A DNA stretch of 64,000 nucleotides from a bacterium (GCA_037143195.1 JBAWZD010000001.1:355733-419732), one strand, 5' to 3'. Positions 25,830 through 53,547 are shown, counted from the first letter of the stretch. The notes: generated by a model not told the origin, from the letters alone. A program made the numbers and translations.

Positions 25830-27533
25830 CAGAGTAGGACACACGTCCTCAAAAACCGCATTTCGTCCTGAAGTATCAAGTATATTTTTAGGTTCGAACT
25901 GCGGATTTTTTGTTTTTGCTTCAAGCAATCCTTTTTCGATCGTCTTATACAGAATTCCCTTTGTAATTATTACTTTTTTCTCGGTTAAAGTTAGGTTCGA
26001 ACCCAAACTAGAGAGTGCCTCCGTAATCTCTTCAAAATCGCCACTTTTGATAACTTCTTCCAATTCCGTGAGAATCTCGAGCTTATTGGTAACATCTCTC
26101 ATATCGAGCTTAAAGTCTTGTCCTACGCCCATTCTGGCGCGAACATTCGCCATTTCTCCCTTTATTTCTAACTCTTTTTCTCTAAAGCCCTCCTCGTCCG
26201 TAAAACCTCTTGTGTACGCATCAAGTAATCGTCCATGCTGTTCTTCGAGTCGCTTCATATCCTGATGCCAGCTGTTTTCGATCGTTTTGTCAGTCGTTTT
26301 CTGCTTATGTTCTAATATCTCTATGTTATCAATACACCACCTCGCAAGAGGTGGTGAGAGAGCAATTGTGCGGATATAATCATCTACAACCTGTTCACCA
26401 AGGACACTTTCGCTGAAGCTTTTCGCTGGACAATCAGGCACTTTCTTTTTTGTGCAGTGATAATAGATATAATTTAAAACTTTATTCTTGATACTACGTA
26501 AACCACTACCACATTTGGGACACGCACTTTTATTCGACACAGCAAACTTGTTTTTGCAATTACCACACATAATCTGCAGTTTCTTTTCAGCAGTAACTGA
26601 ACCACCGCAGTGTCCGCATTTTAAGAAATTCTTGTACGGAAATTCTTCTCTATGGGTGGATGATCGCGGATTACCTCTACGACGAATCAATTTGAGAATT
26701 TTGTAATGCTCTCGTTCTGTTATCATCCGTGGCACTAAGGGATTCACTTCATACCTGACAGTGTTCCCATCCGAATCTTTACCGAAGAAGAATCCTGCAT
26801 AGAATGGATCACTGAGCATCTTGTACGTCAGCGAAAGTTTCAATGGTTTACCTCCAAACTTCTTTCTCGCAACACTATGAAGCATAAAATCGTTCACAGC
26901 AACACGGTGCAATTCTCTGACTGAATATTTCTCTGTTAGAAACATTTGAAATAGTTTTTTGACGATTTCAAATCTTTCTGGATCAATCAACGTTTTTCGA
27001 AACCCCTTTTCTCCTCGATCATTCGCATATCCGATTTTTGCAATTCCGGGCGGATATCCCATCTGTCGCTTTTTCACAAGCCCGCGCTTAACGTTCTCGC
27101 CCTTGTTGTCGTTCTCCATCTTTGCCTGACTACAGAGCATCGTGAAGAAAAACTTGTCAGAGGGTGTATTTCGGAATATCTGTTGTTTGGTAATTATATA
27201 TTTTAATTTTTCCTCATCTAACAAATCAACCAGTCGCCCAGCATCTCCAGCATTTCTCGAAAGACGATCAGGGTGCCACGTGATAATTGCTTGCACGCTA
27301 CCTTTGTTAATATCTTTAACCATCTGCTCAAAGACAGGTCGTTGTCCTGATTTCTTTGCTGATTTTGCTTCGGTCAATTTTTCGCTTTCTTGTAATTCAA
27401 AACCATAGCTTATAGCAAGTTTATCTGTCTCAGCTTTTTGTGATTCTATCGACAATGCCTGACGTTCTTCTTGCTCGCTTGATTTGCGATTATATGAGCG
27501 TGCTTTAAGTCCTTTGAATTCACCTTTATCCAT
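25770..27533 (-). CDS. large serine recombinase (phage-integrase-type, resolvase/invertase catalytic domain plus recombinase and zinc-ribbon domains)
   Basis: N-terminus ARSYNRKSSEQEERQALSIESQ (catalytic Ser region), central recombinase domain, Cys cluster CGHCGGSV...CGNCKNKF...CPKCGSG, coiled-coil tail. The 3' end (…LPRQGSNLRPIDY) is encoded antisense to the tRNA-Asn T-arm and 3' exon. Confidence 0.85.
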   Translation of the reverse strand: MDKGEFKGLKARSYNRKSSEQEERQALSIESQKAETDKLAISYGFELQESEKLTEAKSAKKSGQRPVFEQMVKDINKGSVQAIITWHPDRLSRNAGDAGRLVDLLDEEKLKYIITKQQIFRNTPSDKFFFTMLCSQAKMENDNKGENVKRGLVKKRQMGYPPGIAKIGYANDRGEKGFRKTLIDPERFEIVKKLFQMFLTEKYSVRELHRVAVNDFMLHSVARKKFGGKPLKLSLTYKMLSDPFYAGFFFGKDSDGNTVRYEVNPLVPRMITEREHYKILKLIRRRGNPRSSTHREEFPYKNFLKCGHCGGSVTAEKKLQIMCGNCKNKFAVSNKSACPKCGSGLRSIKNKVLNYIYYHCTKKKVPDCPAKSFSESVLGEQVVDDYIRTIALSPPLARWCIDNIEILEHKQKTTDKTIENSWHQDMKRLEEQHGRLLDAYTRGFTDEEGFREKELEIKGEMANVRARMGVGQDFKLDMRDVTNKLEILTELEEVIKSGDFEEITEALSSLGSNLTLTEKKVIITKGILYKTIEKGLLEAKTKNPQFEPKNILDTSGRNAVFEDVCPTLLPRQGSNLRPIDYTCPKIT

Positions 27534-27591
27534 ATAGGTTACATAACAACACATACCAAGTAATGGCTTCGAAGTCCATACCCAGCGGTTA

Positions 27592-27759
27592 TTAGCGATT
27601 ATTTTTTATAATGCGCCTGCAGGCGTGTTTCTTTGCCAGCATTGCCATTCGTAGGAGTCGAGTCGCGAGCTCAACGGCTTCAGCATGCGACAACTGAACA
27701 CCATAATCCTGATCGATTATTTCGATAAGTCGGCTAAGTTGTTTCGCTGATAAGTCCAT
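27592..27759 (-). CDS. small helical protein immediately upstream of the recombinase (candidate Xis/RDF or regulator)
   Basis: MDLSAKQLSRLIEIIDQDYGVQLSHAEAVELATRLLRM.... A 14-bp inverted repeat (27761-27802) overlaps its start. Confidence 0.35.
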   Translation of the reverse strand: MDLSAKQLSRLIEIIDQDYGVQLSHAEAVELATRLLRMAMLAKKHACRRIIKNNR

Positions 27760-27896
27760 ACAAAATGGCCAACAGGACGGTGACTTCCTGCTGGCCATTT
27801 TGTATGACGTCACCGTATGGTCAACGCAAAACGCGCTACCACATTTCTATGGTGACGCGTTTTGATTCGATAATCTCCCTAGGTTTTAGAGGGTCT

Positions 27897-28655
27897 CTAA
27901 AACCTCTTATTTTTGAGTTTGTTGTACTCAGTGACAACCCGCTTAATTGTCGCAGTACTGACCTTAATCTTATCTTCATTACTTAAGATTTTTTGAATAA
28001 TCATTTCCTTTGTCTGATCCACGCACGTTGGATCAAGTTCTTTTCGGGATTTTCTAGACAGGGCGTAGATTTTTTCATCTCTTTCTTTGTTTTGAAGTGG
28101 ATTCATTTTTTCAGGTTTTTTCTGTGTTTGCTCCATGAGAGAATCCTGAATTCTTTCCCAGTTCTCCTTTATGAATTCTTGAACATCTTTGTAATTTGTC
28201 GCTTCAGGAAAAATAAAAAGTTTAACGAATGGTTGCTTCACCGCGACATAAAGATCATCTAGACATTGAAATTTAGAACCGTATTTGTACGCATCTGTAT
28301 CCAAGACAGCAATAGTGTTCTTTGTTTTTCGTTTGATTGCTCCATCTTCATGTTTTTTCATTTTTCTGGTTTCGGGATCACCGAAATAAAGATAGTCAAA
28401 TAAGAAATCTCTATCTAACAATGACACTCCGTACTTTTTTGCAAGATTTATTTGTTCAAGGAACAGATCTTCTGTCATATTTGCATCTAGTCCTTTTATC
28501 CAATGAGTTTTGAGTATCTCTTTCTCGAATCCAAATATTGGCATCTTAAATTTACGACGTATATTGGCTACATCTTCCCAAAAAACGTCACTGAAGGTTA
28601 TCTTATATAACTGATCCTCAAGCCGAGATACTGTCTCGGCGTCACCGCTATTCAT
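27897..28655 (-). CDS. hypothetical protein (island)
   Basis: 252 aa, AT-rich codon usage, no recognisable motif. Confidence 0.5.
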   Translation of the reverse strand: MNSGDAETVSRLEDQLYKITFSDVFWEDVANIRRKFKMPIFGFEKEILKTHWIKGLDANMTEDLFLEQINLAKKYGVSLLDRDFLFDYLYFGDPETRKMKKHEDGAIKRKTKNTIAVLDTDAYKYGSKFQCLDDLYVAVKQPFVKLFIFPEATNYKDVQEFIKENWERIQDSLMEQTQKKPEKMNPLQNKERDEKIYALSRKSRKELDPTCVDQTKEMIIQKILSNEDKIKVSTATIKRVVTEYNKLKNKRF

Positions 28656-28923
28656 ATACCCAAAGTGTACCAGAAAGTGCCGTTTATGCTATGATAATTT
28701 TGTACCGCAAGGTATTCGAACAATTTAATATGAAAGTAACCTAAACCATCGCTTCGGCGGTGGCATGGTGAAAAAATCCGACTAAGGAGCAAACAACCCA
28801 TCATATGGGGGCTTCCTTAGTCGGTCATACGTCGAAAGGCGTATGGATGTCGCAAGACATCACCCCTGTGATGGGCTTTTTGCTGTCCATTTAGGGGGTT
28901 TTATCAGACTTTAAAATAACATT

Positions 28924-29127
28924 ATGGAAATAGCTATAATCATTTTATTAGTGATCATTGTTTTTCAATTATCGGCAATGAATGGGAATTTAAGAATCAT
29001 CGATCAAACACTGGAGGGTATCAGAGAAATGTCTGAGATGAGTGCTGGCCAACGCTGGGAGCACGATTTAAAAATTGACGATCCTGAAGAATATAAACGC
29101 TACCAAAATAGGGATCGTTCTTATTAA
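28924..29127 (+). CDS. hypothetical small membrane-anchored protein (island)
   Basis: 67 aa, N-terminal TM helix MEIAIIILLVIIVFQLSA. Confidence 0.35.
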   Translation: MEIAIIILLVIIVFQLSAMNGNLRIIDQTLEGIREMSEMSAGQRWEHDLKIDDPEEYKRYQNRDRSY

Positions 29128-29158
29128 GTTAGATTGCCACAGAGATATCTAACTCAAT

Positions 29159-29488
29159 TTAATTTAGTTTGCTTTTCAAAAAAGCTATGCCATTTTGCTT
29201 GCCCTCAAGAGTTGTAGCGTACACATCATAATACACCTCTGTTGAAAGAACATCTTCTCCTTTTTTATTCCATTCTTCAACACGCGCATCAAGCCAAGTT
29301 TGTAAATCGTCCTCAGTAAAAGCTTTTTTAAAGTGATCAACGAAATATTCATATGAGGCGCAGATGTACACGCTAGAGTATTTGCTACCATGATCAGACA
29401 ATAAGCGCAGGATTGTCCAATATACATCCCTGTGAGTATCTTCTCTTAGTTTACTATTCTCGATTCTCATAATTTTATTATACCACAC
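29159..29488 (-). CDS. hypothetical protein, last gene of the R-M/defense operon
   Basis: 109 aa. Its start overlaps the stop of the DUF3800-like gene. Confidence 0.5.
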   Translation of the reverse strand: MWYNKIMRIENSKLREDTHRDVYWTILRLLSDHGSKYSSVYICASYEYFVDHFKKAFTEDDLQTWLDARVEEWNKKGEDVLSTEVYYDVYATTLEGKQNGIAFLKSKLN

Positions 29489-30290
29489 TGATTAGTCTTC
29501 TAAATTTTGCTTTTATTCTGTCGGTGCTTTCTTTTATTGAAGGTGATAATGTTCTTTTAGGGTAAACATTGAAACCTTTTCCTAAAATTGTATTAAGATC
29601 GGTATCATCTGATTTCCAAAAATTATCCTTTATGATGGGTAGAAAATTATACGCCATCTCCTTCATACTATACTGAATTGCACCTAATACTACGTCGTTA
29701 ATTTGATGAATCTGACTATATTCATTACTGATTTGAACGACAGGATAAATAATATAACGCAGATCAGAATAATCTATTCCATTAGCATAGGCAGAAAAAC
29801 AATGTCCGGTCATGTGGGAAGTAAACGCTTGCTCAAAGCAATCTGATATAACCATACCATTTTCTCTTATTGATTCGAGGTACTGATTAAATTTATGCAG
29901 ACAAACATTCATTCCATATTTTGTTGTCTGTAATTGGCGAGATTTATTTATTCTAAATTTAATAATCATATCCACGAAACTCATATCGTGATAGAAGTCA
30001 TGTGGTGCAAGATAAACAATAATTTTGCATTTTGACTTACTCACCATTTCTAGAATACGTTGTTTAAATTCTGCATGAATAGTAGCATCTAATATTCCTT
30101 CTCCATTCCAATTGTTATTTGTCCATTTTATTGGACGCTCATGTTTTATTCCATAATGACTTTTTAGTTTCAGTACCTTCTTACAAAGAGGGGCAAGTTC
30201 TTTTTCATCTACAATAATTCCACCATAAATGAAGAATTCGAATTTGTCGTCACTGGTTATATTGGACTCATCAGTAATAAGGAATTTCAT
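29478..30290 (-). CDS. DUF3800-like protein
   Basis: 270 aa. N-terminus MKFLITDESNITSDDKFEFFIYGGIIV matches the M..IDESG.. start characteristic of DUF3800. Sits 14 nt downstream of hsdR. Confidence 0.5.
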   Translation of the reverse strand: MKFLITDESNITSDDKFEFFIYGGIIVDEKELAPLCKKVLKLKSHYGIKHERPIKWTNNNWNGEGILDATIHAEFKQRILEMVSKSKCKIIVYLAPHDFYHDMSFVDMIIKFRINKSRQLQTTKYGMNVCLHKFNQYLESIRENGMVISDCFEQAFTSHMTGHCFSAYANGIDYSDLRYIIYPVVQISNEYSQIHQINDVVLGAIQYSMKEMAYNFLPIIKDNFWKSDDTDLNTILGKGFNVYPKRTLSPSIKESTDRIKAKFRRLISVV

Positions 30291-30304
30291 CTGTTAGTCA
30301 GTAT

Positions 30305-33271
30305 TTATTTATTCATCTTCTTGACCACATATTCGAACACTTTCTCTTGGACGAATTTCTTGAGTTCTGGACTCTGATCAAGTTTTTGATACAAGCTGAA
30401 GTGATTGTCGAGCACGCCAACAAGCTCGTCTTGAAAGAGCTGATCAAATTTCAATTTCGCAGAATCCTTGCTGTTATTTTCTACAGAACCTCTCAGCACT
30501 TCACTTGCAAGAAGTCGCTTACTCAAGTCATTGAGAATAACTCGATCACCATCAGTGAAATTCGTACCGTATCGTTCATTGATTTCTTTTATGATTTTTG
30601 ATAGCGCGTCTCGTTCATCTTCGGTTGAACCCTTACTATCTCCACTACCCATTGGATCGATAACTCCTTCAGTATTTTCAAGTTGAACATTCTTTTCTCC
30701 AGTCTTTTCAATTCTATATGTTGCCATATCTATCGCTTCAAGCACTTCATACGGAAGTGGATTTTCTCGTCTTGGTAATTTCTTAATCAGAAACTTCAGG
30801 AAGATATATAGCTTCTCAAGCTGAGGATCTTCAAATGTAACAATCTGCGAGATGAATGCGTATTTTTTGAGATAGTCGAATACAGTTGTTTTGAAACTTT
30901 CCATTTCTTCTTCAGTAAGATTTTCTTCTTGGATTCTTGAAACGACACCATCAATTATGTGATTGAGCTTATCCGGTGTTGCACCTGCGAAGTATTCATC
31001 TATAAACCCATTTACCTCGAAATCCGTGAAGAACTTGAATCCACGCACCTCACGCTCGAGATCGTGCAGTATATTCGGATTAGTAGCTTCTGAGAGCACT
31101 GTGGTGGTGTAATAGGGCTGAAAAGCGTCCTTAATCTCGTCTGTTTGATTCACAAAGTCGAGAACGAACGTATCGTCCTTTCCGTAAGTAGTTCGGTTCA
31201 ATCGTGAGAGTGTTTGAACTGCACCAACCCCTCCAAGCTTCTTATCGACATACATCACCGAAAGCAACGGCTGATCGAATCCTGTTTGATATTTTTCCGC
31301 TACGATCAAAAACTTATACTCGTCTTTTTTGAATTCTTCAGTAGTTTGAGTATCGGACACCTTGTTCATCTGCGCTTCAGTATATTCCAACTTCGTGTCG
31401 ACATCTTTTACGGTACCAGAAAAAGCCACTAATGCTTTATGGTGGTATCCTTTTTCCTTGAGATATTTATCAAACGCAATCTTATATCGAACAGCGTGGA
31501 GACGAGATTTTGTTACCACCATCGCCTTTGCCTTGCCACCGACAAGTGAAGCTATTTTTTCTTCAAAGTGCTCCACCATGATCGCTGTCTTTTTATCGAT
31601 AGCATGCTCATGGCGCTCCACGTATCCGATCATCAATCGCTGTGCTTTTTTCTTGTCGAATTCAGGATCGTCTTCAACTTTTTTCAGAAGCCCGAAGTAT
31701 GTTTCGTATGTCGTGTAATTCTTCAAAACATCAAGAATGAATTTCTCCTCAATAGCTTGTTTCATTGAATACAGAGAGAACGGTATATATTTTCCAGTGA
31801 GTGGGTCTTCAGCTCCAAAGAGTTCAAGTGTCTTTTGTTTTGGAGTTGCAGTGAACGCAAAGAAGCTCAAGTTTGGTGAAGCGACCTTTCGCGCTTTCAT
31901 GCGCTCAATGATTTGATCTTCCACTGTCTTGAATACTTTTTCTTCTTTCTCCGTTTCTTTTTCTGCTTCGTCCAAAGTAAGTACTTGTCGCAAATCGGCG
32001 GCAGATTCTCCGGATTGCGAAGAATGAGCTTCGTCAATGATGACTGCGAATTTTTTGCCCTCCACTTTTTCTATTGCATCAACAATCACAGGGAATTTCT
32101 GCAGAGTCGTCGTAATAATTCTTACTCCTGCTTCCAATGATTCCTTGAGTTCTTTTCCTCCATTCTCTATGTGTTTTACAAGCCCTGTCACCTGACTGAA
32201 GCTCTTTACCGTGTCTGAAAGCTGTTTATCGAGCACACGGCGGTCGGTAACGACAATAACGCCATCAAACACGTTCTTGCTTGCAATATCGTGTAATTCG
32301 GCAAGACGATGCGCTACCCATGCAATGGTATTACTTTTTCCTGATCCAGCGCTGTGTTGAATAAGATAGTTTTTCCCTGAGCCATTCTCCTGAGCATCTA
32401 ACACGATTTTTCTCACTGTCTCCAATTGATGATAACGAGGGAAGATTATTTTTTCTTCCTTACTTTTCTTTCCGTTTTTGTCTTCTTTTTCTTCGGTGAT
32501 ATCTTGTATGAAATTCCCGAGTAAATCAAACACACTGTCTTTTGACCAGACATCTTCCCAGAGATAGTGGGTTTTGTATTTTCCTTTTGGTGCATCAGGA
32601 TTGCCAGACGAACCATTGTTGCCTTTGTTGAACGGCAAGAAATATGTCGTAAGACCAGTGAGTCGAGTCGTCATATATGCCTGTTCAGTGTCTACTGCAA
32701 AGTGAGTCAGGCATCGCTTGAAGGATAGGAGTTTCTCTTTTTGATCACGATCCGTTCTGTATTGAGAAATAGCATTGATAACATTCTGTCCTGTAAATTG
32801 ATTTTTGAGTTCCACAGTAAAAACAGGGAGTCCGTTCACGAAGATAACCATGTCTAGAGAGTTCTCGTTCTTTGCGCTGTATTTGACCTGACGCATAACA
32901 CTCAATATATTTCCAGCGTAATCAGCGAGTGTTTCCGGATTTTTGTCATTTTCTGGCTTGAAGTGCGCAAGATGAAAACGCACCCCCCGATCGGTAACCC
33001 CATCACGCAGAACACTCAACAAGCCACGAGAAAGAAGCTCCTCATCAATTCTAGCCAAGAATTTACTCTGTGCTTCTCCTCCGTACTGCTCAACAATCTT
33101 CTGCCATGCTTCATTCTGAGTATTTTGAATAAACTCCAAAACCAGCTCTGTATCCATACAGAGAGTTTTATCGTAGGAAGAATTTAATCTCGAACGATAT
33201 TTGTGGAGCTCAGCAAGTTCCTTCTCGATGAATTCTTCAAATCCTTTTTCTTTTGTGTTTGTTTTTATCAT
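30305..33271 (-). CDS. hsdR: Type I restriction enzyme R subunit
   Basis: 988 aa. N-terminal PD-(D/E)xK nuclease (DMVIFVNGLPVFTVELK). SF2 helicase motifs: motif I IQHSAGSGKS, DEAH box FAVIIDEAHSSQ. C-terminal helical domain. Confidence 0.93.
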   Translation of the reverse strand: MIKTNTKEKGFEEFIEKELAELHKYRSRLNSSYDKTLCMDTELVLEFIQNTQNEAWQKIVEQYGGEAQSKFLARIDEELLSRGLLSVLRDGVTDRGVRFHLAHFKPENDKNPETLADYAGNILSVMRQVKYSAKNENSLDMVIFVNGLPVFTVELKNQFTGQNVINAISQYRTDRDQKEKLLSFKRCLTHFAVDTEQAYMTTRLTGLTTYFLPFNKGNNGSSGNPDAPKGKYKTHYLWEDVWSKDSVFDLLGNFIQDITEEKEDKNGKKSKEEKIIFPRYHQLETVRKIVLDAQENGSGKNYLIQHSAGSGKSNTIAWVAHRLAELHDIASKNVFDGVIVVTDRRVLDKQLSDTVKSFSQVTGLVKHIENGGKELKESLEAGVRIITTTLQKFPVIVDAIEKVEGKKFAVIIDEAHSSQSGESAADLRQVLTLDEAEKETEKEEKVFKTVEDQIIERMKARKVASPNLSFFAFTATPKQKTLELFGAEDPLTGKYIPFSLYSMKQAIEEKFILDVLKNYTTYETYFGLLKKVEDDPEFDKKKAQRLMIGYVERHEHAIDKKTAIMVEHFEEKIASLVGGKAKAMVVTKSRLHAVRYKIAFDKYLKEKGYHHKALVAFSGTVKDVDTKLEYTEAQMNKVSDTQTTEEFKKDEYKFLIVAEKYQTGFDQPLLSVMYVDKKLGGVGAVQTLSRLNRTTYGKDDTFVLDFVNQTDEIKDAFQPYYTTTVLSEATNPNILHDLEREVRGFKFFTDFEVNGFIDEYFAGATPDKLNHIIDGVVSRIQEENLTEEEMESFKTTVFDYLKKYAFISQIVTFEDPQLEKLYIFLKFLIKKLPRRENPLPYEVLEAIDMATYRIEKTGEKNVQLENTEGVIDPMGSGDSKGSTEDERDALSKIIKEINERYGTNFTDGDRVILNDLSKRLLASEVLRGSVENNSKDSAKLKFDQLFQDELVGVLDNHFSLYQKLDQSPELKKFVQEKVFEYVVKKMNK

Positions 33272-33275
33272 AAAT

Positions 33276-35150
33276 TTATTCTTTCAATTTAGCATGCACC
33301 GACAACACAAAATTATAGAAGGTTGTATATTTATCTTGTATGATTTGCTTGGTGTTTGTTTTTTTAACGACATCAGACAATACTTTGTTTGTAATCAAAG
33401 ATTTTAATTCTTTTAGATCGTCATTCGGGCTTATTTTTCTTAGTGATTTTAGTTTATCTTTTACTTCATCTAAAACAGCTTTCGTTGAATCAATTTGTAT
33501 TATTACAGAAAAAAGTTCGTTTACTGATTCAATAATAATTTCAGATGGTAGTAAATCTTCTATTGTAAAGTAAGCTTTACTTTGAGCTGAAAAATCATTC
33601 AATTCAAAGATATTATTTTTCAAAGAAGAGTTATCCTTAATCATGTTATTTTTTATACTCTTACCTTTTTGATCTGAGTCAAGAATAAAAAAACCTTTAA
33701 CTAGTTTATTATCGAAGAATTTTGCATATGTAGGCATTTTGTCAGCACTCTCAGAAGATATAGAACCTATATCTAAAGGTTTTATGTCAGATTTAAATTT
33801 TGATGTAAAAACATCAAACAAATCCTTATCGGTTCTACCTTCAAAAACTAACATATATGGTTTTATGTGTTCGTACACTGATGTTCCGAGTGCTTCATAT
33901 AATACTTCTTCTTGATATGGATTTTCAGGATCAATAGAATACGCACTTGTAACAGAACCTTTCGATACACTTCCACATTTCTCAACTCTTACATGTCGAT
34001 TTAAACTTTTTCGATCAACCATATAGATTGAATGCGTTGAAACAAAAACTAAATTGTTTTGCGCGATATTTAGTATCTCATCTCTAAGATATCTTACTCC
34101 GCTTGGGTGCAAGTGAACTTCGGGTTCGTCCAAGAGAATAACTTGGTTTTTTAAAATTGATTTTTTGTTTTCAACAGAAAGGTTAAGTAATATTGATACG
34201 AGTTGTCGAAATCCATCACTACGTTGAGACATTGCATATTTAGGTGTTGGATCATCCTTATCTTCTACGTAAACCGAACATGATAAATCTTGCTCGATTT
34301 GTATTCTAATCGAGATATTGTGTTCCGACCAAATCAAATTTATATGCTCAGTGATTGCTCTGGAGAGATCTTCCTGTAACTCCATTCTATTTTCTGCACT
34401 TTGTGATGCAAGAGAAACTGCGTAAGGGATATCATCTCTTTCAGCTATTTTAAAGATATTTCGAAGTGGAATTGACTTTGATTGATCTGTTGCAAATTCA
34501 TTCAGATTTACAGGTTTATTTATTAGATACTTGTCGTCATTAGGAGCCCAAAAAATTATTTTTGGAATACCTAAATCAAAAATTGTAGATTTTTCTGATA
34601 AAATCTTCTCTAAAATTTCCTTGTTTAAGATTCTTGCACCCGCACCAACAAGTGTGACGATACTTTCTTCTGTAACTGGTTCTTCACCCTGATATATTTC
34701 TTTGATTAACTTAATAGCGTTTTGTCCATCAATGAAATAGAGCCCGAGAGTTTTTATGTCATCAATTTCTATAAAAAATTGATCTATTCGCTTGTTCTCG
34801 AAATCAAAAACAACCACGCTTTCTATATTTTTAATCTTTATTTCTTTTGCCAAATCAAGAGGGATACCATTTTTACTCAAGTGGTCAACATAAAATTGCC
34901 AATTTTGAATTCCTAAGTTTAAACGAACTGATACTGATTCTTTTTTCTTCTGTGCCGATTTAAGACAATCAGTATTGTAGTTAATTGTTTCTCCTTTTGA
35001 TATAAGATTTATCGCTTTAAGTATATTACTTTTACCCGTCTCGTTAACACCCAAGAGTATATAGCAACTCTTATTGGCAATCGAATCAGTAGTCAAAAAA
35101 ATCTCTTTAATACTTCGGTAGTTATTTATTTTTATACTGTTTATTTTCAT
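33276..35150 (-). CDS. OLD-family ATP-dependent endonuclease (ABC-type ATPase fused to a Toprim/DUF4435-like nuclease; PARIS/Gabija-like), embedded between hsdS and hsdR
   Basis: MKINSIKINNYRSIKE... Walker A LLGVNETGKSNILKAI, signature-like SDGFRQLVSILL, Walker B/H-loop VILLDEPEVHLHP, VFVSTHS. C-terminal Toprim-like motifs MLVFEGRTDKDLF and GFFILDSDQKG. Confidence 0.75.
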   Translation of the reverse strand: MKINSIKINNYRSIKEIFLTTDSIANKSCYILLGVNETGKSNILKAINLISKGETINYNTDCLKSAQKKKESVSVRLNLGIQNWQFYVDHLSKNGIPLDLAKEIKIKNIESVVVFDFENKRIDQFFIEIDDIKTLGLYFIDGQNAIKLIKEIYQGEEPVTEESIVTLVGAGARILNKEILEKILSEKSTIFDLGIPKIIFWAPNDDKYLINKPVNLNEFATDQSKSIPLRNIFKIAERDDIPYAVSLASQSAENRMELQEDLSRAITEHINLIWSEHNISIRIQIEQDLSCSVYVEDKDDPTPKYAMSQRSDGFRQLVSILLNLSVENKKSILKNQVILLDEPEVHLHPSGVRYLRDEILNIAQNNLVFVSTHSIYMVDRKSLNRHVRVEKCGSVSKGSVTSAYSIDPENPYQEEVLYEALGTSVYEHIKPYMLVFEGRTDKDLFDVFTSKFKSDIKPLDIGSISSESADKMPTYAKFFDNKLVKGFFILDSDQKGKSIKNNMIKDNSSLKNNIFELNDFSAQSKAYFTIEDLLPSEIIIESVNELFSVIIQIDSTKAVLDEVKDKLKSLRKISPNDDLKELKSLITNKVLSDVVKKTNTKQIIQDKYTTFYNFVLSVHAKLKE

Positions 35151-36391
35151 ATTTTTACTTTTCCTGTTACGACATTCGATATTAACGACGACTTAAACTC
35201 TTTTAAAATTTCAATTGATTGTTCTGTCTTGCGGATAGCAGTATCAAAAAGCTTTGTTTTTTCGTTTAGTTTATTTACGATTTCTTTTTGTTTTTCTAAA
35301 TTAGGAAGTGAAAATTCATAGTTTCTAACGAATGAAGTAGTAACTCGTTTTTGTCCTGCTGTCCCGCGCATTTCAACTTCGCCTGATTTTCTGAATTTAT
35401 CAGAAAAAATTAGATAGTATAGATAATCAGCCAGTATCGAATCTTTCGGACGCATAACCATGAATTCGGTTGTGCCAAAACCAAACCCATTCTTTAATCC
35501 TTTCATTACTCCGGCTTTTCCGTTTTCGTAGCATGGAGTAATCTTGGCTAAAACAACATCTCCATTTCGAAAATAGGTAAACCCATCTTTTACCTCTTTG
35601 TATTTTTTTTCTTGTAGTTCAAGTTTTCCGTTCTCAGATATAGCTTCCATTGGTACAAACGAAACAGTATCTTCTAAGTCAGTGTCTGAAACAACTTTTT
35701 TTGTGGGATTTACTTGTACATGATTTTTAATTTTTACAAAATCACCTTTGATATCCATAATCATATGATTAACCAAAGCGGTGCGCCTTTCTTTTAGCAA
35801 TTCAATTTGTATTTCTTTTTTTTCTATAATTTGATCGATAAACGATGTTTTTTCATCAAGATAATTTGCAATTTTAGTTTGTTCTTTTGATTCAGGAACC
35901 GTAATTAAGATTCGTTTCATTTCGCTCTCACGAGTAGTCCAGAGATCGTCAACAATGCCTCGCCCCCAGCGATAAAACTCTTCAGAGAATAGATTACTTC
36001 TAAACAAATAATGAAAATACTTTGAGTCAAAAGTCGGGTTTCTTTTTCGGAGAACGTTGTAAACAAGAGAAACTCCTCCCTCATATTCTGACATTCCAAC
36101 AGCACCTTTTCTATCTGATCGCCCATTGATAGCTATATCACCAATCTTTACATGTTTTCGCAAGCTACCCTCGGCAACCTTGGCAGCATTTTCTATTTGC
36201 TTCTTAATACCACCATAGGTGACTGACAGAGGTTCATAATTTTCTTCAGTTACCTTATCATGGGGGAAATCAAATACTGATACAACTTTTTGCGATTCCC
36301 AACCTTTAGGAATTTTACCCAACCACTCAACACCCGAATCTTTGTATTCAGGATATTTATCGTATTTTTTTGTGAGTTTTAGTGTTTGCAT
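35147..36391 (-). CDS. hsdS: Type I restriction-modification specificity subunit (two target-recognition domains)
   Basis: 414 aa, duplicated TRD architecture with conserved central and C-terminal coiled-coil spacers. The 4-nt ATGA overlap with the downstream OLD gene indicates translational coupling. Confidence 0.9.
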   Translation of the reverse strand: MQTLKLTKKYDKYPEYKDSGVEWLGKIPKGWESQKVVSVFDFPHDKVTEENYEPLSVTYGGIKKQIENAAKVAEGSLRKHVKIGDIAINGRSDRKGAVGMSEYEGGVSLVYNVLRKRNPTFDSKYFHYLFRSNLFSEEFYRWGRGIVDDLWTTRESEMKRILITVPESKEQTKIANYLDEKTSFIDQIIEKKEIQIELLKERRTALVNHMIMDIKGDFVKIKNHVQVNPTKKVVSDTDLEDTVSFVPMEAISENGKLELQEKKYKEVKDGFTYFRNGDVVLAKITPCYENGKAGVMKGLKNGFGFGTTEFMVMRPKDSILADYLYYLIFSDKFRKSGEVEMRGTAGQKRVTTSFVRNYEFSLPNLEKQKEIVNKLNEKTKLFDTAIRKTEQSIEILKEFKSSLISNVVTGKVKI

Positions 36392-36392
36392 A

Positions 36393-36635
36393 TTAATTAA
36401 TTTTTAACAACCAAAGAACAATTCCAGAGATTAATGCAATCGCAACACCAATTAATATCTGCCCCATAACTGATTTAGGTAGTAATGATTGAGCTGTTTT
36501 AAAAATTGATCTTATTATTTTTGTTCTCGTTCCTTCATTTTTAATTGCATTATTAAAACCAATAAATTCACAGTCCTCAATTTTTGTGTCAGAAGCTTCT
36601 TTTGTTATATGAATACCAATAGTTTTATTTTCCAT
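36393..36635 (-). CDS. small protein with a C-terminal TM helix, between hsdM and hsdS
   Basis: About 80 aa from MENKTIGIHITKEASDTKIEDCEF... to ...ILIGVAIALISGIVLWLLKIN. Its ATG overlaps the hsdM stop by a few nt. Confidence 0.45.
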   Translation of the reverse strand: MENKTIGIHITKEASDTKIEDCEFIGFNNAIKNEGTRTKIIRSIFKTAQSLLPKSVMGQILIGVAIALISGIVLWLLKIN

Positions 36636-36639
36636 ATAT

Positions 36640-46371: not shown

Positions 46372-47511
46372 TTAATCAAATTTCATTCCGAGGTGTAAAC
46401 CACGCTCGCGAACGACCTGCTCGACACAATCTGCTGACCACGCTCCAAGTGTTGGAATGAGGAGCAAATTCTCTCGTGTCCGCTGAACTAAATCAAACAA
46501 ATTTTGAATACTCGCTTTTTTCAACAGACGAGATACTCGGTCAGGAAGGTTTAGATTTTCAAGGGTCACGCTCATTAATCTAGTTTTTTCAGTTTCGATA
46601 CTCCGTGCCTCTTTGGAGACTGACAACTCAAGATTTTTGATTGTATCCAGCTCATTTTGAATCGTAATTAACTTGTTCCACAACTCAACATAGTCAGAGA
46701 CTGTCTTACAAATGAAATAATGTTCATTGTTCAACTCATTCGATAAGCGCGAAATTGCATTCCTTTGGGTTAGCTCAAAAAACGCGTCGGTCACATCGTA
46801 CTTTTCCATCAAATCGGATTTGCTTTCGTTAGAAAGCTCATACTTGGCCTGAACGAATTCCTTCTCGCGCCAATCGAAGTTACCGATTCGAATTTTGAGA
46901 TACTCGATGAACCTTTCATCAAAATACCGAGATTCTCTCGTCTTAGGCGACAGAAGCATTTCGCATGTCGATGATGTAAGCAGGCTACGAATAGTCCCTA
47001 TTTTCAGATCTTCTGGAAAAGGAATTTCTTCATTGTGCATTTTTTTTAATACCTCATCGAGGTAGTGTCCTGCTGTATTTTGATCTTTTACTTCAGGATA
47101 CAATTTGTTAATCAGCGCTTTCCACCCTTCACAAATGCCGGGTGAAAACATGTTGCCTCCAGACATGTTTTTGTAAAAAATTGCTCCAGCAATAAAGTCT
47201 TCCCATCTGATTAAATTGAGGTGCTTAAACAGATGAGGTTTCAAGTCAATAATCGCGGGAGATTTCATCACAAGTGAACACTCGAGATCGTCAGCTACAA
47301 GCCACGCATATACCTTCAACAGGTATAACTTGTTTTCGGGGACAGCCTCCTTCTTCAGATCTACGTTTTTGGACTCCTCAGGGAGGTTGCTATTAACGCA
47401 ACTCTCAGTAATTTTATACAGTTCCGCTATGAGTTTAAGCGGGATGCTATTCTTGTACAGAATCGCGATGTTCCTCTTCATTTCTGGGGTGACTACTTTG
47501 TGTGTGGACAT
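46372..47511 (-). CDS. protein with a C-terminal RNA polymerase alpha-subunit CTD-like (HhH) domain
   Basis: C-terminus LENLNLPDRVSRLLKKASIQNLFDLVQRTRENLLLIPTLGAWSADCVEQVVRERGLHLGM matches the RpoA alpha-CTD consensus (LEELELSVRSANCLKRAGI.TLGDL..).. Start placed at MSTHKVV... (ATG at 47509-47511). The track's extension runs through an inverted repeat. Confidence 0.6.
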   Translation of the reverse strand: MSTHKVVTPEMKRNIAILYKNSIPLKLIAELYKITESCVNSNLPEESKNVDLKKEAVPENKLYLLKVYAWLVADDLECSLVMKSPAIIDLKPHLFKHLNLIRWEDFIAGAIFYKNMSGGNMFSPGICEGWKALINKLYPEVKDQNTAGHYLDEVLKKMHNEEIPFPEDLKIGTIRSLLTSSTCEMLLSPKTRESRYFDERFIEYLKIRIGNFDWREKEFVQAKYELSNESKSDLMEKYDVTDAFFELTQRNAISRLSNELNNEHYFICKTVSDYVELWNKLITIQNELDTIKNLELSVSKEARSIETEKTRLMSVTLENLNLPDRVSRLLKKASIQNLFDLVQRTRENLLLIPTLGAWSADCVEQVVRERGLHLGMKFD

Positions 47512-47714
47512 ATATTTTGATTTTAACGGTTGCCACAAAAGATTGGTGACGCTTCTCTGGCAACCGTTAAAACCATATTTTTCAATGAAATAATCAACCA
47601 TGAATACTACACATATATTCACAAATGTCAAATTATCCACGTTTCAAAGTTGGCCAATTATGGCTCAACGATGTTACGTTAATTGTGATCAACGTTCCTG
47701 CTATTACACATGTG

Positions 47715-48128: not shown

Positions 48129-48449
48129 ATGTGGCACTTCATTAAATCACTGTTCGTTTTCGAAAATGTGAACCATTTCATATGGTTTTTAGGATCAATA
48201 ACGATCCTCGTTTATCTCGTGGCAAATTCACTCTTGTACAAAAGGAGTGCGTTGCTAAAATTTCTCACGCAGATTTTCCTTATTCTTGCATTGATAGCTG
48301 CATTTTGTGTTTTTATTCTTTATCCGAATCTAAAAATACAAGAGCATACCTTCACCATACATTGTGTTTGGTACAATACATTATTGGGAGTCGTAACATT
48401 CTTGTTTCGACGAAAAATAGAGAAAATAAATCATAAAAAGCCAACCTGA
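48129..48449 (+). CDS. hypothetical membrane protein
   Basis: 106 aa, three hydrophobic helices. Terminator hairpin at 48434-48464 (aaaagccaac ctgaaa gttggcttttt). Confidence 0.45.
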   Translation: MWHFIKSLFVFENVNHFIWFLGSITILVYLVANSLLYKRSALLKFLTQIFLILALIAAFCVFILYPNLKIQEHTFTIHCVWYNTLLGVVTFLFRRKIEKINHKKPT

Positions 48450-48479
48450 AAGTTGGCTTTTTATCTGGGTTACGCTTTT

Positions 48480-49208
48480 TTATTCTTTACCGTATTTCTT
48501 GGCGTACACGTAGAATCGTGCACTGACTGCAAGAAGCGCAATGAGTGTGACGATGAATGCCCAGAACCAACCAGAACGGACAGACCACGTTCCTGCGCCG
48601 ATTGCCGAAGCAGACAAAGCTTGCGTCGTGACTGTTTCAGTTTGAGCGGGAGCTACGACTTCTGGTGCCTTCACTGCCTCGACTGGAGCAACTTTCTTCA
48701 CCGGCGTTGTTGTTACAGTTGTGACTTTCTGCTCAAGAGGAGCAGTGATGGTGATTGCAACCGGAGCACTTGTGATTGCAGTTTGTGTACTTTCCTGAAA
48801 GGCAATCGAGTTCGAATCAATTGAGATTTGGCCAACACCTGCTGATTTCGCGGTAAAGGTAATTGTTTCAAATACTTTTTTGCCAGAGAACCCACCAGGA
48901 AGTCCAGCAGTCTTGATAAGAATTCCGTTTGTCGCGTCAAGCGAATCATATCCTGCTTGTGTCAGCGCCATCCACTCATTGGTCTGTGCGACATTCGTGA
49001 CAGATACAAGATCCGTTGGATATTTGATTTCAATTTTTTCTGCGTCATTGACGTCAGTCGCAGAATCAACACTGACAGTAATCGTAAACGTCGTACCTGC
49101 GACTGCGTTTACAGAACTTGGCGACATACTTGCAGTTGTAGCTGCGAATGTCGCGTGACTAAACATGAGAACTCCGAGCACAATGAGAATTGTAGAATAT
49201 TTTTTCAT
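48480..49208 (-). CDS. cell-surface anchor protein with a cohesin-like beta-sandwich domain and a C-terminal TM anchor
   Basis: Signal peptide. Domain ...SPSSVNAVAGTTFTITVSVDSATDVNDAEKIEIKYPTDLVSVTNV... resembles the cohesin/Ig-like fold. T/V/P-rich linker. C-terminal TM WFWAFIVTLIALLAVSARFYVYAKKYGKE. Confidence 0.5.
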   Translation of the reverse strand: MKKYSTILIVLGVLMFSHATFAATTASMSPSSVNAVAGTTFTITVSVDSATDVNDAEKIEIKYPTDLVSVTNVAQTNEWMALTQAGYDSLDATNGILIKTAGLPGGFSGKKVFETITFTAKSAGVGQISIDSNSIAFQESTQTAITSAPVAITITAPLEQKVTTVTTTPVKKVAPVEAVKAPEVVAPAQTETVTTQALSASAIGAGTWSVRSGWFWAFIVTLIALLAVSARFYVYAKKYGKE

Positions 49209-49212
49209 ATAA

Positions 49213-51951
49213 TTATTTCGTCCATTTCGCCATAAGCATTACAAAATCCAGCACATCGACCTTCCCGTCACTATTAAAATCTGCAATATTACTTGTACCG
49301 GTACCTCCCCAATGTGCCATCAATGTGACGAAGTCGAGAATGTCTACCTTACAATCGTGGTTGGTGTCTACTTTTCCAAGCGAACACGTGTTGCCACCGC
49401 CGCCACCTGAACCTCCTCCGCCTCCGCCACCACCTCCACCTCCTCCACCACCGCCTCCGCCACTAGTGGTTGAGCAAGGGCTCGTGGTAAAGGTCATATC
49501 ACTTCCTGTACCGTTGCCGTACGAATTGACGGCAAGTGCTTGATAGTGATATGTCGTCGCACATGTGAGACTTGGGAGATCAAGATGAAATACTCCGCTC
49601 GTAAAGGTGCCTGTCGCGATGACCTGACCGCCATATGCACTCGTCGTTCCAAATGAGAATCCTCGTCCGGTTACCGTACTTGAGCCCGTGTAATCGATAA
49701 TTCCGTTAATCGTTGCGCTTGTCTGTGTGATTGAAGTCGCAGCTGATGTCGTTACATATGGCACAGGCTGGCGTGTCCAGATGAATCCAGGAGAATCATC
49801 ACCTGCAACAATCCACAAACCGTCTCTCGACATTCCAAGCGAAGCCCAGAACGCAGAACCGGCCGATGTTTGTGGAACCCATGTTGTTCCGCTATCAGTC
49901 GAAATCAAAATGAAATGACCATCAGCATCCGGACCACCTTCGGCAAGCACAATTACTTTGCCATCGTCAGAGACGCGAGCGTTGCTCCAATCTCCAGTAC
50001 CAGCACTTGTCATTTTGGTCCATGTCACGCCACCATCAGTTGAACTATACGCGTACCCGTGCGCTTCGACAGCGACAATATATGTTCCATCACTTGAAGC
50101 GGATACGTTTTTCCAAGAATGTGAACCGAGATCGGTAAAGTCTGCCCATGTGAGTCCACCATCGAGCGATTGATGAATGAGCCCGTTTGAGTCACTTACA
50201 ATAATGTCTGTTCCATTCTGAGCGACGGCGAGCGCACTCCACGGACCCGAACCAAGGACTGTAGCATCCGTCCATGTCATTCCTCCGTTATGTGAAATTG
50301 AAAGATATCCTGCGAACGTTGTGTATAGAATAGTCTGGCCATCAGTACTAAGGCCGAGCGCCTGACTCAATTGTGATCCAAGAGTCGGAAGCGCGCTCCA
50401 TGTTGCTCCTGTATCAAATGAAATATATACCGAGCCAGTTACTTTGTCTGAAGCAAGCATTCGAGTGCCAGAACCTGAGATTGCGACACTGTTCCAAAAA
50501 TGCGTACCGAGATTTGGGACTTGTGTCCATGTCACATCACCGTCGGTTGAGATATACAAATTTTCATTTGGATAATCGGTTGCAATCGTTGTTTGACCAT
50601 CATCGGAGGTCGCGATATTTGACCAGAAGTGTGCACCCGAACCGACTTGACGAATCCACGCCGAACCAGAGTACACAGTGGTACATGGAAGCGTCTGCAC
50701 CGTCGCATCACTACCATACGAAACACCATCAGCATTTGAAGCGAACGCACGATAGTGGTAGAGAGTATTACATGCGAGTCCGGTATGCACATCAGCGCCG
50801 GTAAATGACGGCGAGTTTCCTTGTGTAAAAGGAAGCGTGAGTCCAATCGTAACGTTCGTACCATATGCAGTTGTGAGACCATATTCGGCTCCAACACTTT
50901 CGAGGAACGAATCACCGTAATCAGGAACTGATCCATTCAATTGAGCTCCAAATTCACGAATCGTTCCTGTAGTCAAAGTCGTGACGACAGGTGGTCGTCC
51001 GTTTGTATAAATATATCCACCCAAATCTACAGCAGAAAATGGTGCACCGTTTGTCGTTGAAGCCACTGCTTGCCACATACGATTGCCCGCGACTGTATCA
51101 TGCACCCATGTAGATCCACCGTCATATGATTCGTACAATCCTCCTGCTCCGTTATCGGCTGCAATGAGCGTCATGCCATCCGCACTACTTGCGACAGATG
51201 ACCAACTTCGCACACCCGAACTGTAATCAGGATTCCATGTCGTGCCACTGTCTGTTGAGGTATACAAATAGTCACCGACAGCACCAGCCGTCATATGTGT
51301 ACCGTCTGCATTGATTGAAATACTAAGCCATGAACGATTCCCAGCGCTTGTAGCTTCAGTCCATGTTGCACCAGAGTCGTTTGAAATCATTATTGATCCG
51401 ATTGCGCTCGCAGCTGCAAGTGTCGTTCCGCTACTTGAAGATGCTACTACTTGCCACAGAGAAACCCCGAGTGATGTCTGGGTCGTCCATGTCGCTCCAC
51501 TGTCTGTTGAGAGATATACATTTCCGTTTGATTCAGCTGCGATCAATTGCGAACCACTCGCATTTGAGGCAATTGAGGCCCATACGTGTGAACCGAGACT
51601 CGTTTGCTCAGTCCATGTCACACCACCATCAGTTGAAGTAAAGAGTGATCCACCCGCAACGATAGCTGCGAGCTTTTGGCCATCAGCACTTCCGGTGACA
51701 GAGTTCCATTCTTGCGGACCTGTTGCAGTTTGTTGCGTCCAATGCAAACCACGATCAGTCGACGTATAAACGTATCCAGCGCCTGATTCATTGTCTACTG
51801 CGGCGAGTCTTGTGCCATCAGCGCTACTCGTAATCGAAAGCCAGTGATGCTGACCAGAATCCGTTCGCTCAATCCATGTATGGGCTGACGCGACGTGAGT
51901 AACTACAAAAAATAAAACTGCGAAAAATGGAACTATAGCTATTTTTTTCAT
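49213..51951 (-). CDS. secreted BNR/Asp-box repeat protein (>15 S-x-D-x-G-x-T-W units) with poly-Gly linker and C-terminal dockerin-like domain
   Basis: Signal peptide. Repeated STDGGVTW / STDSGATW / SNDSGATW units. GGGGGGGGGGGGGGGGGSGGGGG linker. C-terminus DTNHDCKVDILDFVTLMAHW...DFNSDGKVDVLDFVMLMAKW, a duplicated dockerin type I calcium-binding motif. Confidence 0.75.
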   Translation of the reverse strand: MKKIAIVPFFAVLFFVVTHVASAHTWIERTDSGQHHWLSITSSADGTRLAAVDNESGAGYVYTSTDRGLHWTQQTATGPQEWNSVTGSADGQKLAAIVAGGSLFTSTDGGVTWTEQTSLGSHVWASIASNASGSQLIAAESNGNVYLSTDSGATWTTQTSLGVSLWQVVASSSSGTTLAAASAIGSIMISNDSGATWTEATSAGNRSWLSISINADGTHMTAGAVGDYLYTSTDSGTTWNPDYSSGVRSWSSVASSADGMTLIAADNGAGGLYESYDGGSTWVHDTVAGNRMWQAVASTTNGAPFSAVDLGGYIYTNGRPPVVTTLTTGTIREFGAQLNGSVPDYGDSFLESVGAEYGLTTAYGTNVTIGLTLPFTQGNSPSFTGADVHTGLACNTLYHYRAFASNADGVSYGSDATVQTLPCTTVYSGSAWIRQVGSGAHFWSNIATSDDGQTTIATDYPNENLYISTDGDVTWTQVPNLGTHFWNSVAISGSGTRMLASDKVTGSVYISFDTGATWSALPTLGSQLSQALGLSTDGQTILYTTFAGYLSISHNGGMTWTDATVLGSGPWSALAVAQNGTDIIVSDSNGLIHQSLDGGLTWADFTDLGSHSWKNVSASSDGTYIVAVEAHGYAYSSTDGGVTWTKMTSAGTGDWSNARVSDDGKVIVLAEGGPDADGHFILISTDSGTTWVPQTSAGSAFWASLGMSRDGLWIVAGDDSPGFIWTRQPVPYVTTSAATSITQTSATINGIIDYTGSSTVTGRGFSFGTTSAYGGQVIATGTFTSGVFHLDLPSLTCATTYHYQALAVNSYGNGTGSDMTFTTSPCSTTSGGGGGGGGGGGGGGGGGSGGGGGNTCSLGKVDTNHDCKVDILDFVTLMAHWGGTGTSNIADFNSDGKVDVLDFVMLMAKWTK

Positions 51952-52110
51952 GTTATTGAATTATAGCATACTTGTTTTAAAAGTCAAATATCCCAAAAGT
52001 ACTAAGGCTTGAAAGAAAATGGGTCACGAACTGGAGAAAGAATTTTGTACTATTGACACAAATCGATATTATATGTAATACTATGAGTCAACCATTTAAA
52101 TCTAAAGAAG

Positions 52111-52806: not shown

Positions 52807-53547
52807 ATGAGTTTTTGGAACAACAAAGAATACGATTCACTTAAAATGCTGCTCGTCGCCGTACTTGTGACAGCAATTGGGTTGTTTACGTACAATGAAA
52901 TGAAAATTAAGCCGCTTGAAAACGCGGGACGAGTTATCTCGACGAGTGCTTCGGGGAATCATCGTGGCGCAAAAGGTGGCAATCCGTACGGAAGTGATGT
53001 TGGTGGCGGGAAGGGCGTATGTGATCAATCTGTCACTGTCGCGCTCGTGCCTTCGTACAACACTGGGACATCAGCAGCATCATTCAGCTTGAATCCTTCA
53101 TCGACGAGCGGAGTAGCAAATACAAACGTCAACCTCGGAACATACCGACTCGACAACCCGAGTCCATGTCCAATGAATGTCACCATGATGAAATTCATAT
53201 CGAATCCCTCAACAGTTCCCTCTCCTTCATACAGTGTGATTCAAAACATCAAATTATATGAGGCGTCGAGTGGTACACAATTTGGCGCGACACTTCCGTT
53301 CACGACCCCGATCGATAGCACCGGAACACTTCCATTCACTTCAACAGTCGGAGTCAACGTACCAGCATATGGATACGCGGAGTTTACCCTCGTTGCTGAT
53401 GGACGTAATGTTCCCCCACCAGCACATATTACGATACAGCTCACCGAGTTCAGCGCGACAAACATCTTGACCACAGTGGTTGACCACGCAGTCTTTCCAA
53501 CAAGCATGCCACTCGTGTCTGCTCCAACCGTAACATTCGTTCCCTAA
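52807..53547 (+). CDS. hypothetical membrane-anchored extracellular protein
   Basis: 246 aa, N-terminal TM LKMLLVAVLVTAIGLFTY, S/T-rich beta-type sequence. Confidence 0.5.
   Translation: MSFWNNKEYDSLKMLLVAVLVTAIGLFTYNEMKIKPLENAGRVISTSASGNHRGAKGGNPYGSDVGGGKGVCDQSVTVALVPSYNTGTSAASFSLNPSSTSGVANTNVNLGTYRLDNPSPCPMNVTMMKFISNPSTVPSPSYSVIQNIKLYEASSGTQFGATLPFTTPIDSTGTLPFTSTVGVNVPAYGYAEFTLVADGRNVPPPAHITIQLTEFSATNILTTVVDHAVFPTSMPLVSAPTVTFVP

Follow-up and report, generated by a model that had tools for sequence, protein, structure and literature searches.

The locus

The window analysed here, a 64,000-nucleotide (nt) stretch of DNA from a small-genome bacterium of the Patescibacteria type (GCA_037143195.1, JBAWZD010000001.1:355733-419732, with positions counted from its first letter), carries two adjacent open reading frames (ORFs) on its minus strand, at 49213-51951 and 48480-49208. 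The first encodes a 912-amino-acid (aa) protein that ends in a dockerin (hereafter the cargo), and the second encodes a 242-aa protein with a predicted cohesin fold and a C-terminal transmembrane (TM) helix (hereafter the anchor). An earlier note on this DNA had proposed that the two form a surface display pair, and the coordinates, cargo length and 4-nt spacing that it gave for them proved exact. The locus is laid out as follows.

51960..51987 (-): promoter-like TTGACT-16 nt-TATAAT with a TG extension, 8 nt 5' of the ATG of the 912-aa gene (consensus match only)
49213..51951 (-): cargo gene, 912 aa, BNR double propeller with a C-terminal dockerin (ORF, Pfam, AlphaFold model)
49209..49212 (-): intergenic spacer TTAT, 4 nt, giving the junction TAA-TTAT-ATG from cargo stop to anchor start
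48480..49208 (-): anchor gene, 242 aa, membrane-anchored cohesin-fold protein, the proposed dockerin receptor (ORF)
48433..48464 (-): intrinsic-terminator-like hairpin, 14-bp stem, 4-nt loop and T-rich tail, 16 nt past the anchor stop

The promoter-like site is of the sigma-70 type and near consensus, with 11 of 12 positions matching. It is the top-scoring site within a 4.8-kb region in which the total number of promoter-like sites equals the shuffle expectation. Because the gap between the genes is 4 nt, a promoter-like site lies upstream, a terminator-like hairpin lies downstream and no further ORF of note was found between these two signals, the pair appears by its anatomy to be a bicistronic unit; the signals themselves are consensus matches of putative function.

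A dockerin ends the cargo protein

We modelled the cargo with AlphaFold from an alignment of 35 homologs, giving a mean predicted local distance difference test score (pLDDT) of 84.6. Its parts, from N to C terminus, are these.

51883..51951 (-): signal peptide, aa 1-23, MKKIAIVPFFAVLFFVVTHVASA followed by HTW (by eye from the translation; pLDDT low over aa 1-22)
50998..51879 (-): 7-bladed BNR/Asp-box beta-propeller 1, aa 25-318 (model, Asp-boxes, Sortilin-Vps10 and BNR matches)
50695..50988 (-): beta-sandwich (FN3/Ig-like) domain 1, aa 322-419 (modelled secondary structure)
49771..50658 (-): 7-bladed BNR/Asp-box beta-propeller 2, aa 432-727 (model, Asp-boxes)
49486..49758 (-): beta-sandwich (FN3/Ig-like) domain 2, aa 732-822, related to domain 1 (model)
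49393..49464 (-): Gly/Ser linker of 24 residues, aa 830-853, S-G17-S-G5
49216..49392 (-): dockerin, aa 854-912, with Ca-loop and helix segments DTNHDCKVDILDFVTLMAHWG and DFNSDGKVDVLDFVMLMAKWTK (Pfam PF00404)

The C-terminal module is a dockerin by sequence. Pfam places it in the type I family (PF00404, Dockerin_1) over aa 862-907, at 26.5 bits against a gathering cutoff of 22.9, which bears out the duplicated dockerin motif described in the earlier note. A dockerin is expected to contain a duplicated segment of ~22 residues, each made of a loop D-x-[DN]-x-[DN]-x-x-x-[DN]-x-x-D and a helix. The cargo has this duplicated pattern with both Ca-loops intact (DTNHDCKVDILD and then FVTLMAHW; DFNSDGKVDVLD and then FVMLMAKW), and the protein terminates three residues past the second segment. 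The pattern is conserved across 30 aligned dockerins of the family, both halves of which follow the subtype consensus D-x-N-x-D-G-K-V-D-I-L-D-F-N-x-L-M-x-N-W. Moreover, a profile built from these 30 dockerins finds solved dockerins as its top matches in the PDB (5lxv_B, 2jnk_A/2ozn, 2y3n_B and 5nrm_B), with calmodulin EF-hands ranking below them. A survey of this dockerin subtype returned only fragments of 111 aa or fewer, from sources that point to Parcubacteria, Berkelbacteria, Saccharibacteria and Gottesmanbacteria.

A variant of the dockerin was seen at four of the related loci described below (L004:1011-1658, L016:5347-5982, L011:5363-5935 and L043:4937-5995). These dockerins lack the first Ca2+ loop (for example GGTVGISDFVLLMTHWG) and keep both helices and the second loop, which suggests a single-calcium subtype.

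The anchor has a predicted cohesin fold

The anchor is a small protein with one globular domain. Signal peptide, beta-sandwich, T/P/V stalk and C-terminal TM helix follow one another just as the earlier note had described.

49143..49208 (-): signal peptide, aa 1-22, MKKYSTILIVLGVLMFSHATFA followed by ATT (by eye from the translation; kept in the family)
48729..49142 (-): cohesin-fold beta-sandwich, aa 23-160, 138 aa (model)
48573..48728 (-): T/P/V/A/E-rich stalk, aa 161-212, low complexity, pLDDT ~33
48483..48572 (-): C-terminal TM helix, aa 213-239, and basic tail KKYGKE

This arrangement is that of a predicted type I membrane protein with its globular domain outside. It recurs in the family: a C-terminal hydrophobic helix followed by a tail that is ~47% K/R is present in 68 of 79 members, and the stalk varies in length among them.

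The beta-sandwich is modelled with a pLDDT of ~90 over aa 24-155 and, as modelled, answers to the description of a cohesin as a jelly-roll beta-sandwich of about 140 residues. Indeed, when the model was compared with the PDB using Foldseek, cohesins held ranks 1-38 (best E 5e-9). By structure comparison the cohesin fold is unambiguous, so the pairing proposed in the earlier note does not founder on a 242-aa protein of some other fold.

Sequence searches tell a different story. Pfam PF00963 (cohesin) gave no match to the anchor at E<=1 or to seven family members at E<=10, NCBIfam did not recognise a cohesin in it, and searches of PDB sequences with the single anchor, a 7-sequence profile and a 79-sequence profile returned no cohesin among their matches. 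The resemblance claimed in the earlier note is therefore upheld in fold and finds no counterpart in PF00963 or any other sequence match: according to the model, the anchor is a cohesin by fold and not a member of the Pfam Cohesin family. The resemblance is already within reach of annotation pipelines, since NCBI automatically names an identical protein, encoded on a 451,635-bp contig of a metagenome-assembled genome (MAG), 'cohesin domain-containing protein'.

The conserved core of the domain reads W79..GYD88..DN92..G95..KTAG102.PGG106. Within it, the conserved patch W79, G86-Y87-D88, D91-N92, K99-T100-A101-G102 and G106 is a candidate binding surface, predicted from conservation.

The two genes travel together

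We scanned 52 related loci (475,007 bp) together with the window for dockerins, using a small hidden Markov model built from four sequences and run against 3,427 ORFs of at least 40 aa. The loci divide as follows, with L031 and L051 taken up where the alternatives are weighed.

44 of 52 loci: dockerin-ended ORF finishing just before the cohesin-like gene
L006, L007: dockerin is a contig-edge fragment
L011: dockerin is frameshifted
L017, L027: contig edge inside the cohesin gene, upstream unreadable
L040: cohesin gene reduced to a 59-aa remnant

In 46 of the 48 loci with a readable gene directly upstream, that gene ends in a dockerin, the frameshifted one included. The distance from the stop of the dockerin gene to the start of the cohesin gene has a median of 5 nt and is 30 nt or less in 40 of the 44 loci. 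Each locus has exactly one cohesin-like ORF; the 64-kb window likewise has one, along with a single dockerin ORF. Elsewhere in the 475,007 bp of loci, the scan gave one other clear dockerin match, in L028, and a marginal one in L051. At L028 (3293-5960) two tandem dockerin-ended genes, of 213 and 667 aa, lie upstream of one cohesin-like gene; this is the only locus seen where one receptor might serve two cargos.

The pairing also allowed a prediction, and it held. P0073, a BNR-dockerin protein found through its cargo and not through an anchor, has a cohesin-like gene (244 aa) 3 nt downstream, the product of which is 43% identical to the window anchor (E 3e-38).

The unit evidently duplicates as a whole, because one MAG, CSMAG_1227, has it twice (L013 and L023). 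The two cohesins are 96% identical, the two dockerins 90% and the two NosD/beta-helix cargos 57%; by these sequence identities, divergence has been quicker in the cargo than in the connector. Across 40 pairs, the divergence of the cohesins correlates with that of the dockerins (Mantel r 0.46, reached in 0 of 2000 permutations). We give this little weight because shared ancestry alone could produce such a correlation.

The cargo is exchanged

Among 43 upstream partners, 30 match PF00404 on their own (E<=1e-3), and all share one architecture: signal peptide, cargo, Gly/Ser/Pro-rich linker, dockerin, stop. The cargo domains are diverse.

8 partners: CHB_HEX_C_1 / Fn3_assoc modules, in proteins of ~210 aa
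5 partners: Bact_surface_Ig-like
3 partners: subtilases (Peptidase_S8)
2 partners: Beta_helix / NosD
2 partners: LTD
1 partner: polysaccharide deacetylase

BNR repeats occur among these 43 only in the lineage of the window, P0073 having been found separately through its cargo. As read from the predicted proteins, then, the cargo changes while the dockerin and the cohesin stay.

Many BNR homologs found elsewhere terminate in PG_binding_1 (PF01471) in place of a dockerin, and cargo of the same type thus has alternative anchoring modules. In the closest relative, L001, where the anchor is 84% identical, a gene upstream of the pair (2935-5169) encodes a 744-aa DUF285 protein that lacks a dockerin and whose C terminus has, by eye only, a peptidoglycan-binding look. 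At the equivalent place the window lacks that gene and has instead an unannotated, secreted-looking protein of 246 aa on the other strand (52807-53547).

The anchor family is large

A word-indexed search with the 242-aa protein found 7 homologous proteins. An exhaustive profile search found far more: counted as clusters at 50% identity, the family comes to 3303 representatives at E<=1e-3, of which 937 reach E<=1e-10 and 514 reach E<=1e-30; nearly every one is 225-275 aa long and matches end to end. The earlier note called cohesin-dockerin pairs outside cellulolytic Firmicutes sporadic, and for this lineage the 514 clusters make that an understatement.

Among species-representative genomes we located 45 loci, nearly all labelled Patescibacteria, a group that also goes by the name of candidate phyla radiation (CPR). 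The labels include Paceibacterota, Parcubacteria, Saccharibacteria-labelled MAGs, Jorgensen-, Wolfe-, Nealson-, Azam-, Magasanik-, Doudna-, Nomura-, Vogel-, Taylor- and Brennerbacteria, and Kazan. Two loci, L036 and L038, come from MAGs labelled 'uncultured Gammaproteobacteria'. A binning or labelling error is more likely here than real spread, because the distribution of the module is otherwise exclusively patescibacterial.

The double propeller of the window

In the model of the cargo, both propellers have a pLDDT above 90. Propeller 1 (pLDDT 93-97) is made of four-strand blades and has six Asp-boxes (at aa 64, 106, 148, 190, 232 and 275); propeller 2 also has six (aa 468, 511, 553, 595, 637 and 684). 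The blade period of ~42 residues gives seven blades per propeller. Pfam recognises Sortilin-Vps10 (57.7 bits against a cutoff of 33) and BNR (PF02012; 35.6 bits against 27), the latter as the earlier note had anticipated. Its count of more than 15 Asp-box units was too high: across the 14 blades the strict pattern (S.D.G..W) matches 10 times and a relaxed one 12 times, still far above the 0.03 expected from shuffles. The two beta-sandwich domains share the repeated sequence ...C..TYHY.A.A.N..G...GSD.T..T.PC. The Gly/Ser linker reported in the earlier note exists, with slightly different bounds and length, 24 residues at 49393-49464 in place of 23 at 49390-49470.

The note had also called the propellers sialidase-like, and here our results disagree. 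The propellers have seven blades and not the six of a GH33 sialidase, the [FYW]R[IVL]P (FRIP) motif is missing, BNR_2 (PF13088) reaches 13.7 bits where its cutoff is 31.4, and no sialidase is found among the top 50 fold matches. When the whole 912-aa chain was compared using Foldseek, GH74 xyloglucanases ranked top (E 2.9e-24, 13-16% identity, low whole-chain TM-score of 0.25-0.33), followed by generic tandem 7-bladed propellers. An NCBIfam glycosylhydrolase model, F510_1955, scores 102.5 against aa 551-697 of propeller 2, under its cutoff of 175. On the evidence of the model, the propellers resemble the GH74/Ycf48 type rather than sialidases. Binding of a ligand or glycan is their most likely role, with hydrolysis possible.

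Tandem 7-bladed Asp-box propellers like those of the cargo are found in GH74 xyloglucanases, Ycf48 and Sortilin-Vps10. The cargo differs from GH74 in having a beta-sandwich of ~100 aa between its propellers, so that the inter-propeller cleft of GH74, which takes the substrate and carries two catalytic Asp residues, is not evidently formed.

Proposed mechanism

We think it likely that the pair is one transcription unit that builds a non-covalent, Ca2+-dependent cohesin-dockerin tether at the cell surface. The basis for this proposal is a dockerin recognised by sequence, a cohesin recognised by fold only, an operon-like anatomy, and an arrangement conserved almost universally across the Patescibacteria with interchangeable cargo. 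As far as computation allows, the central idea of the earlier note, a BNR protein with a dockerin and a dedicated cohesin-like receptor in the membrane, is thereby sustained by the Pfam dockerin and by the conserved adjacency with changing cargo.

In the mechanism that we envisage, we infer the export, the membrane topology, the Ca2+ dependence, the contact between cohesin and dockerin, and the propeller ligands. Both proteins, having signal peptides, would be exported by Sec. A C-terminal helix would keep the 242-aa protein in the cytoplasmic membrane, the basic tail facing inwards, and the protein's single cohesin-fold domain would be held off the membrane on a flexible stalk of ~50 residues, enough to span a thin wall. 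The 912-aa protein would be freed into the envelope, with its dockerin (two Ca2+-binding F-hand segments) on a 24-residue Gly/Ser leash. The dockerin would then plug into the cohesin in a Ca2+-dependent manner, and the two 7-bladed BNR propellers would thereby be shown at the cell surface. Published cellulosome work has established a dual binding mode for type I dockerins, and the near-identity of the two halves of this dockerin at conserved positions would permit one here.

Because a gene pair with varied cargo recurs in nearly every related locus, such a plug-and-socket pair is probably a device that these bacteria use generally for mounting proteins at the cell surface. In its fullest form this becomes a modular display system found throughout the Patescibacteria, in which a divergent cohesin subfamily would provide a single membrane socket and the dockerin-tagged cargo encoded upstream would be swapped repeatedly between adhesin-like immunoglobulin (Ig) modules, propellers, proteases, beta-helix proteins and a deacetylase. 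We put this extension forward tentatively, as possible and somewhat short of an even chance.

Several observations weigh against a tether. The dockerin region of the full-length model has a pLDDT below 50, although helices are predicted at aa 872-880 and 900-908 and the low score can be attributed to an alignment that contained almost no dockerins. L031 has no upstream dockerin. At L051 the cargo is fused to the cohesin-like domain and TM helix in a single ORF, so a cohesin-like domain can occur without a separate dockerin partner. A 1:1 pair also raises the question of why a cell would use it instead of simply fusing the cargo to a TM helix. The L051 ORF itself (4603-6573, in a Brennerbacteria MAG) encodes 656 aa, comprising a signal peptide, an FN3-like region, the cohesin-like domain and the TM helix; it includes no more than a weak dockerin-like stretch with a marginal dockerin match (E 3.7e-05), and amounts to a naturally fused version of the gene pair.

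Three alternatives deserve consideration. The 242-aa protein could be an independent Ig-like or carbohydrate-binding-module (CBM)-like surface or stalk protein that binds a wall polymer or a host ligand. The dockerin would then dock elsewhere, on another protein, a polysaccharide or a cohesin of the host cell, and the adjacency of the genes would reflect co-regulation of envelope components. We regard this as unlikely. Should the modules not bind each other, the strict linkage of the genes would still want an explanation.

The contact could instead be real and transient, the membrane protein acting after Sec as a device for holding, folding or releasing the cargo, for example in a Ca2+-gated manner onto a host. 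The 1:1 bicistronic order and the translational-coupling distance resemble those of cargos with dedicated partners, and proteases, polysaccharide deacetylase and beta-helix cargos could act at a distance. However, characterised cohesin-dockerin complexes are very tight and long-lived joints, the long stalk and the Gly leash fit display, and the small Ig-like or CHB_HEX_C_1 binding modules that account for many of the cargos make most sense if displayed. A transient contact seems to us a rather unlikely account of the pair.

Very improbable, finally, is a variant of the tether, likened to Ruminococcus flavefaciens ScaE, in which the C-terminal helix and tail are a sorting signal for sortase- or exosortase-like cleavage that leaves the cohesin wall-linked with the cargo still bound: 21 of the 79 family members do have a motif [LIV][TS][LF]GT[GDE] (for example LTLGTGN) directly before the hydrophobic helix and its K/R tail, where shuffled tails would give 0.9, and the three elements make up a typical tripartite layout, but the window anchor lacks the motif and has SASAIGAGTWSVRSG in its place, LPxTG is present in 0 of the 79, which led us to reject LPxTG-type sortase anchoring for the family, and no sortase was seen near the locus, though no search was aimed at sortases.

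Comparison with known systems

A cohesin-dockerin tether of this kind would differ from all described systems in its combination of properties: a TM-helix anchor, a bicistronic 1:1 arrangement, cargo encoded upstream, interchangeable cargo, and near-universal presence in a large lineage of bacteria with small genomes. The closest structural matches of the window anchor are the enzyme cohesins of Clostridium perfringens, at a sequence identity of just 6-9%. The non-cellulosomal pairs of that organism (the GH33 enzyme NanJ, cohesin 2vo8; NagJ, cohesin 2w1n/2o4e; NagH, dockerin 2jnk/2ozn) have cohesin and dockerin on secreted enzymes and join enzyme to enzyme. By contrast, the cohesin of the window makes up the entire globular part of a small TM-anchored protein, the gene of which lies directly downstream of that of its presumed ligand.

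In being a surface anchoring protein with a single cohesin, the anchor is like OlpA and OlpC of Clostridium thermocellum (3ul4, 4dh2) and ScaE of R. flavefaciens (2zf9). Those proteins, from polysaccharide-degrading Firmicutes, have S-layer homology (SLH) or sortase/LPXTG anchors and serve many dockerin-bearing enzymes or scaffoldins. Here the anchor has a C-terminal TM helix and no LPxTG, and it is apparently matched 1:1 with its cargo in one operon. Most of the cargos are non-catalytic binding modules, proteases or beta-helix proteins.

The likeness to a cellulosome, which the earlier note had invoked, extends to the pairing of cohesin with dockerin and stops there. Each protein and each locus has one cohesin-fold domain, there is no scaffoldin, no CBM match was obtained, no recognised cellulase is found among the cargos, and a single dockerin ORF lies in the 64 kb.

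Cohesin- and dockerin-like modules are reportedly scattered over the three domains of life, as Peer et al. are said to have described in 2009. The non-cellulosomal cohesin of Archaeoglobus fulgidus (2xdh) and such scattered modules have been described as sporadic single occurrences with no known role. The family described here, in contrast, is large, uniform in architecture and tied to a fixed gene partner.

The genomes of cultivated Patescibacteria are tiny, the cells live attached to other microbes, and the literature on this attachment centres on type IV pili. To our knowledge, how they mount adhesins or enzymes on their surface is largely unknown. In open-access full texts we found no description of a dockerin/cohesin gene pair in CPR, Patescibacteria, Parcubacteria, Saccharibacteria or DPANN; the module is widespread in Patescibacteria and apparently undescribed. 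An essential envelope protein annotated as a dockerin, SEML1_0315, has been reported from the cultivated Saccharibacterium Southlakia, with no mention of a cohesin (PMC10633639). The gene sits beside a tRNA gene and a hydrolase gene on the other strand, and because it has no cohesin-like neighbour we do not count it as an example of the two-gene module.

If our reading is correct, the module would provide a concrete and easily testable mechanism of surface display for Patescibacteria. The displayed surface proteome could be predicted from genomes by reading upstream of the socket gene. Attachment to host cells being the way these bacteria live, the cargo carried by the socket would be one of the chief factors deciding what they adhere to or attack. 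For protein engineering, the family would supply dozens of compact, natural and possibly orthogonal 1:1 cohesin-dockerin connectors. The cohesin-dockerin interaction itself, until now regarded as sporadic outside cellulolytic Firmicutes, would become a mainstream envelope device in a major bacterial radiation.

Other features of the window

Two further regions of the minus strand were noted. At 46372-47640 lies a gene for a 422-aa protein with a C-terminal domain like that of the RNA polymerase alpha subunit (PF03118, 31.4 bits), the remainder of which has no family match. The region 25770-39545 is a block of low GC content (0.33-0.41, compared with 0.45-0.48 elsewhere) that encodes a serine recombinase, DUF3800 and Fic/DOC proteins, and a type I restriction-modification system (HsdR, HsdS and HsdM) whose genes are interrupted by an AAA_15/AbiEii-like ATPase. 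This block looks like a horizontally acquired defence island.

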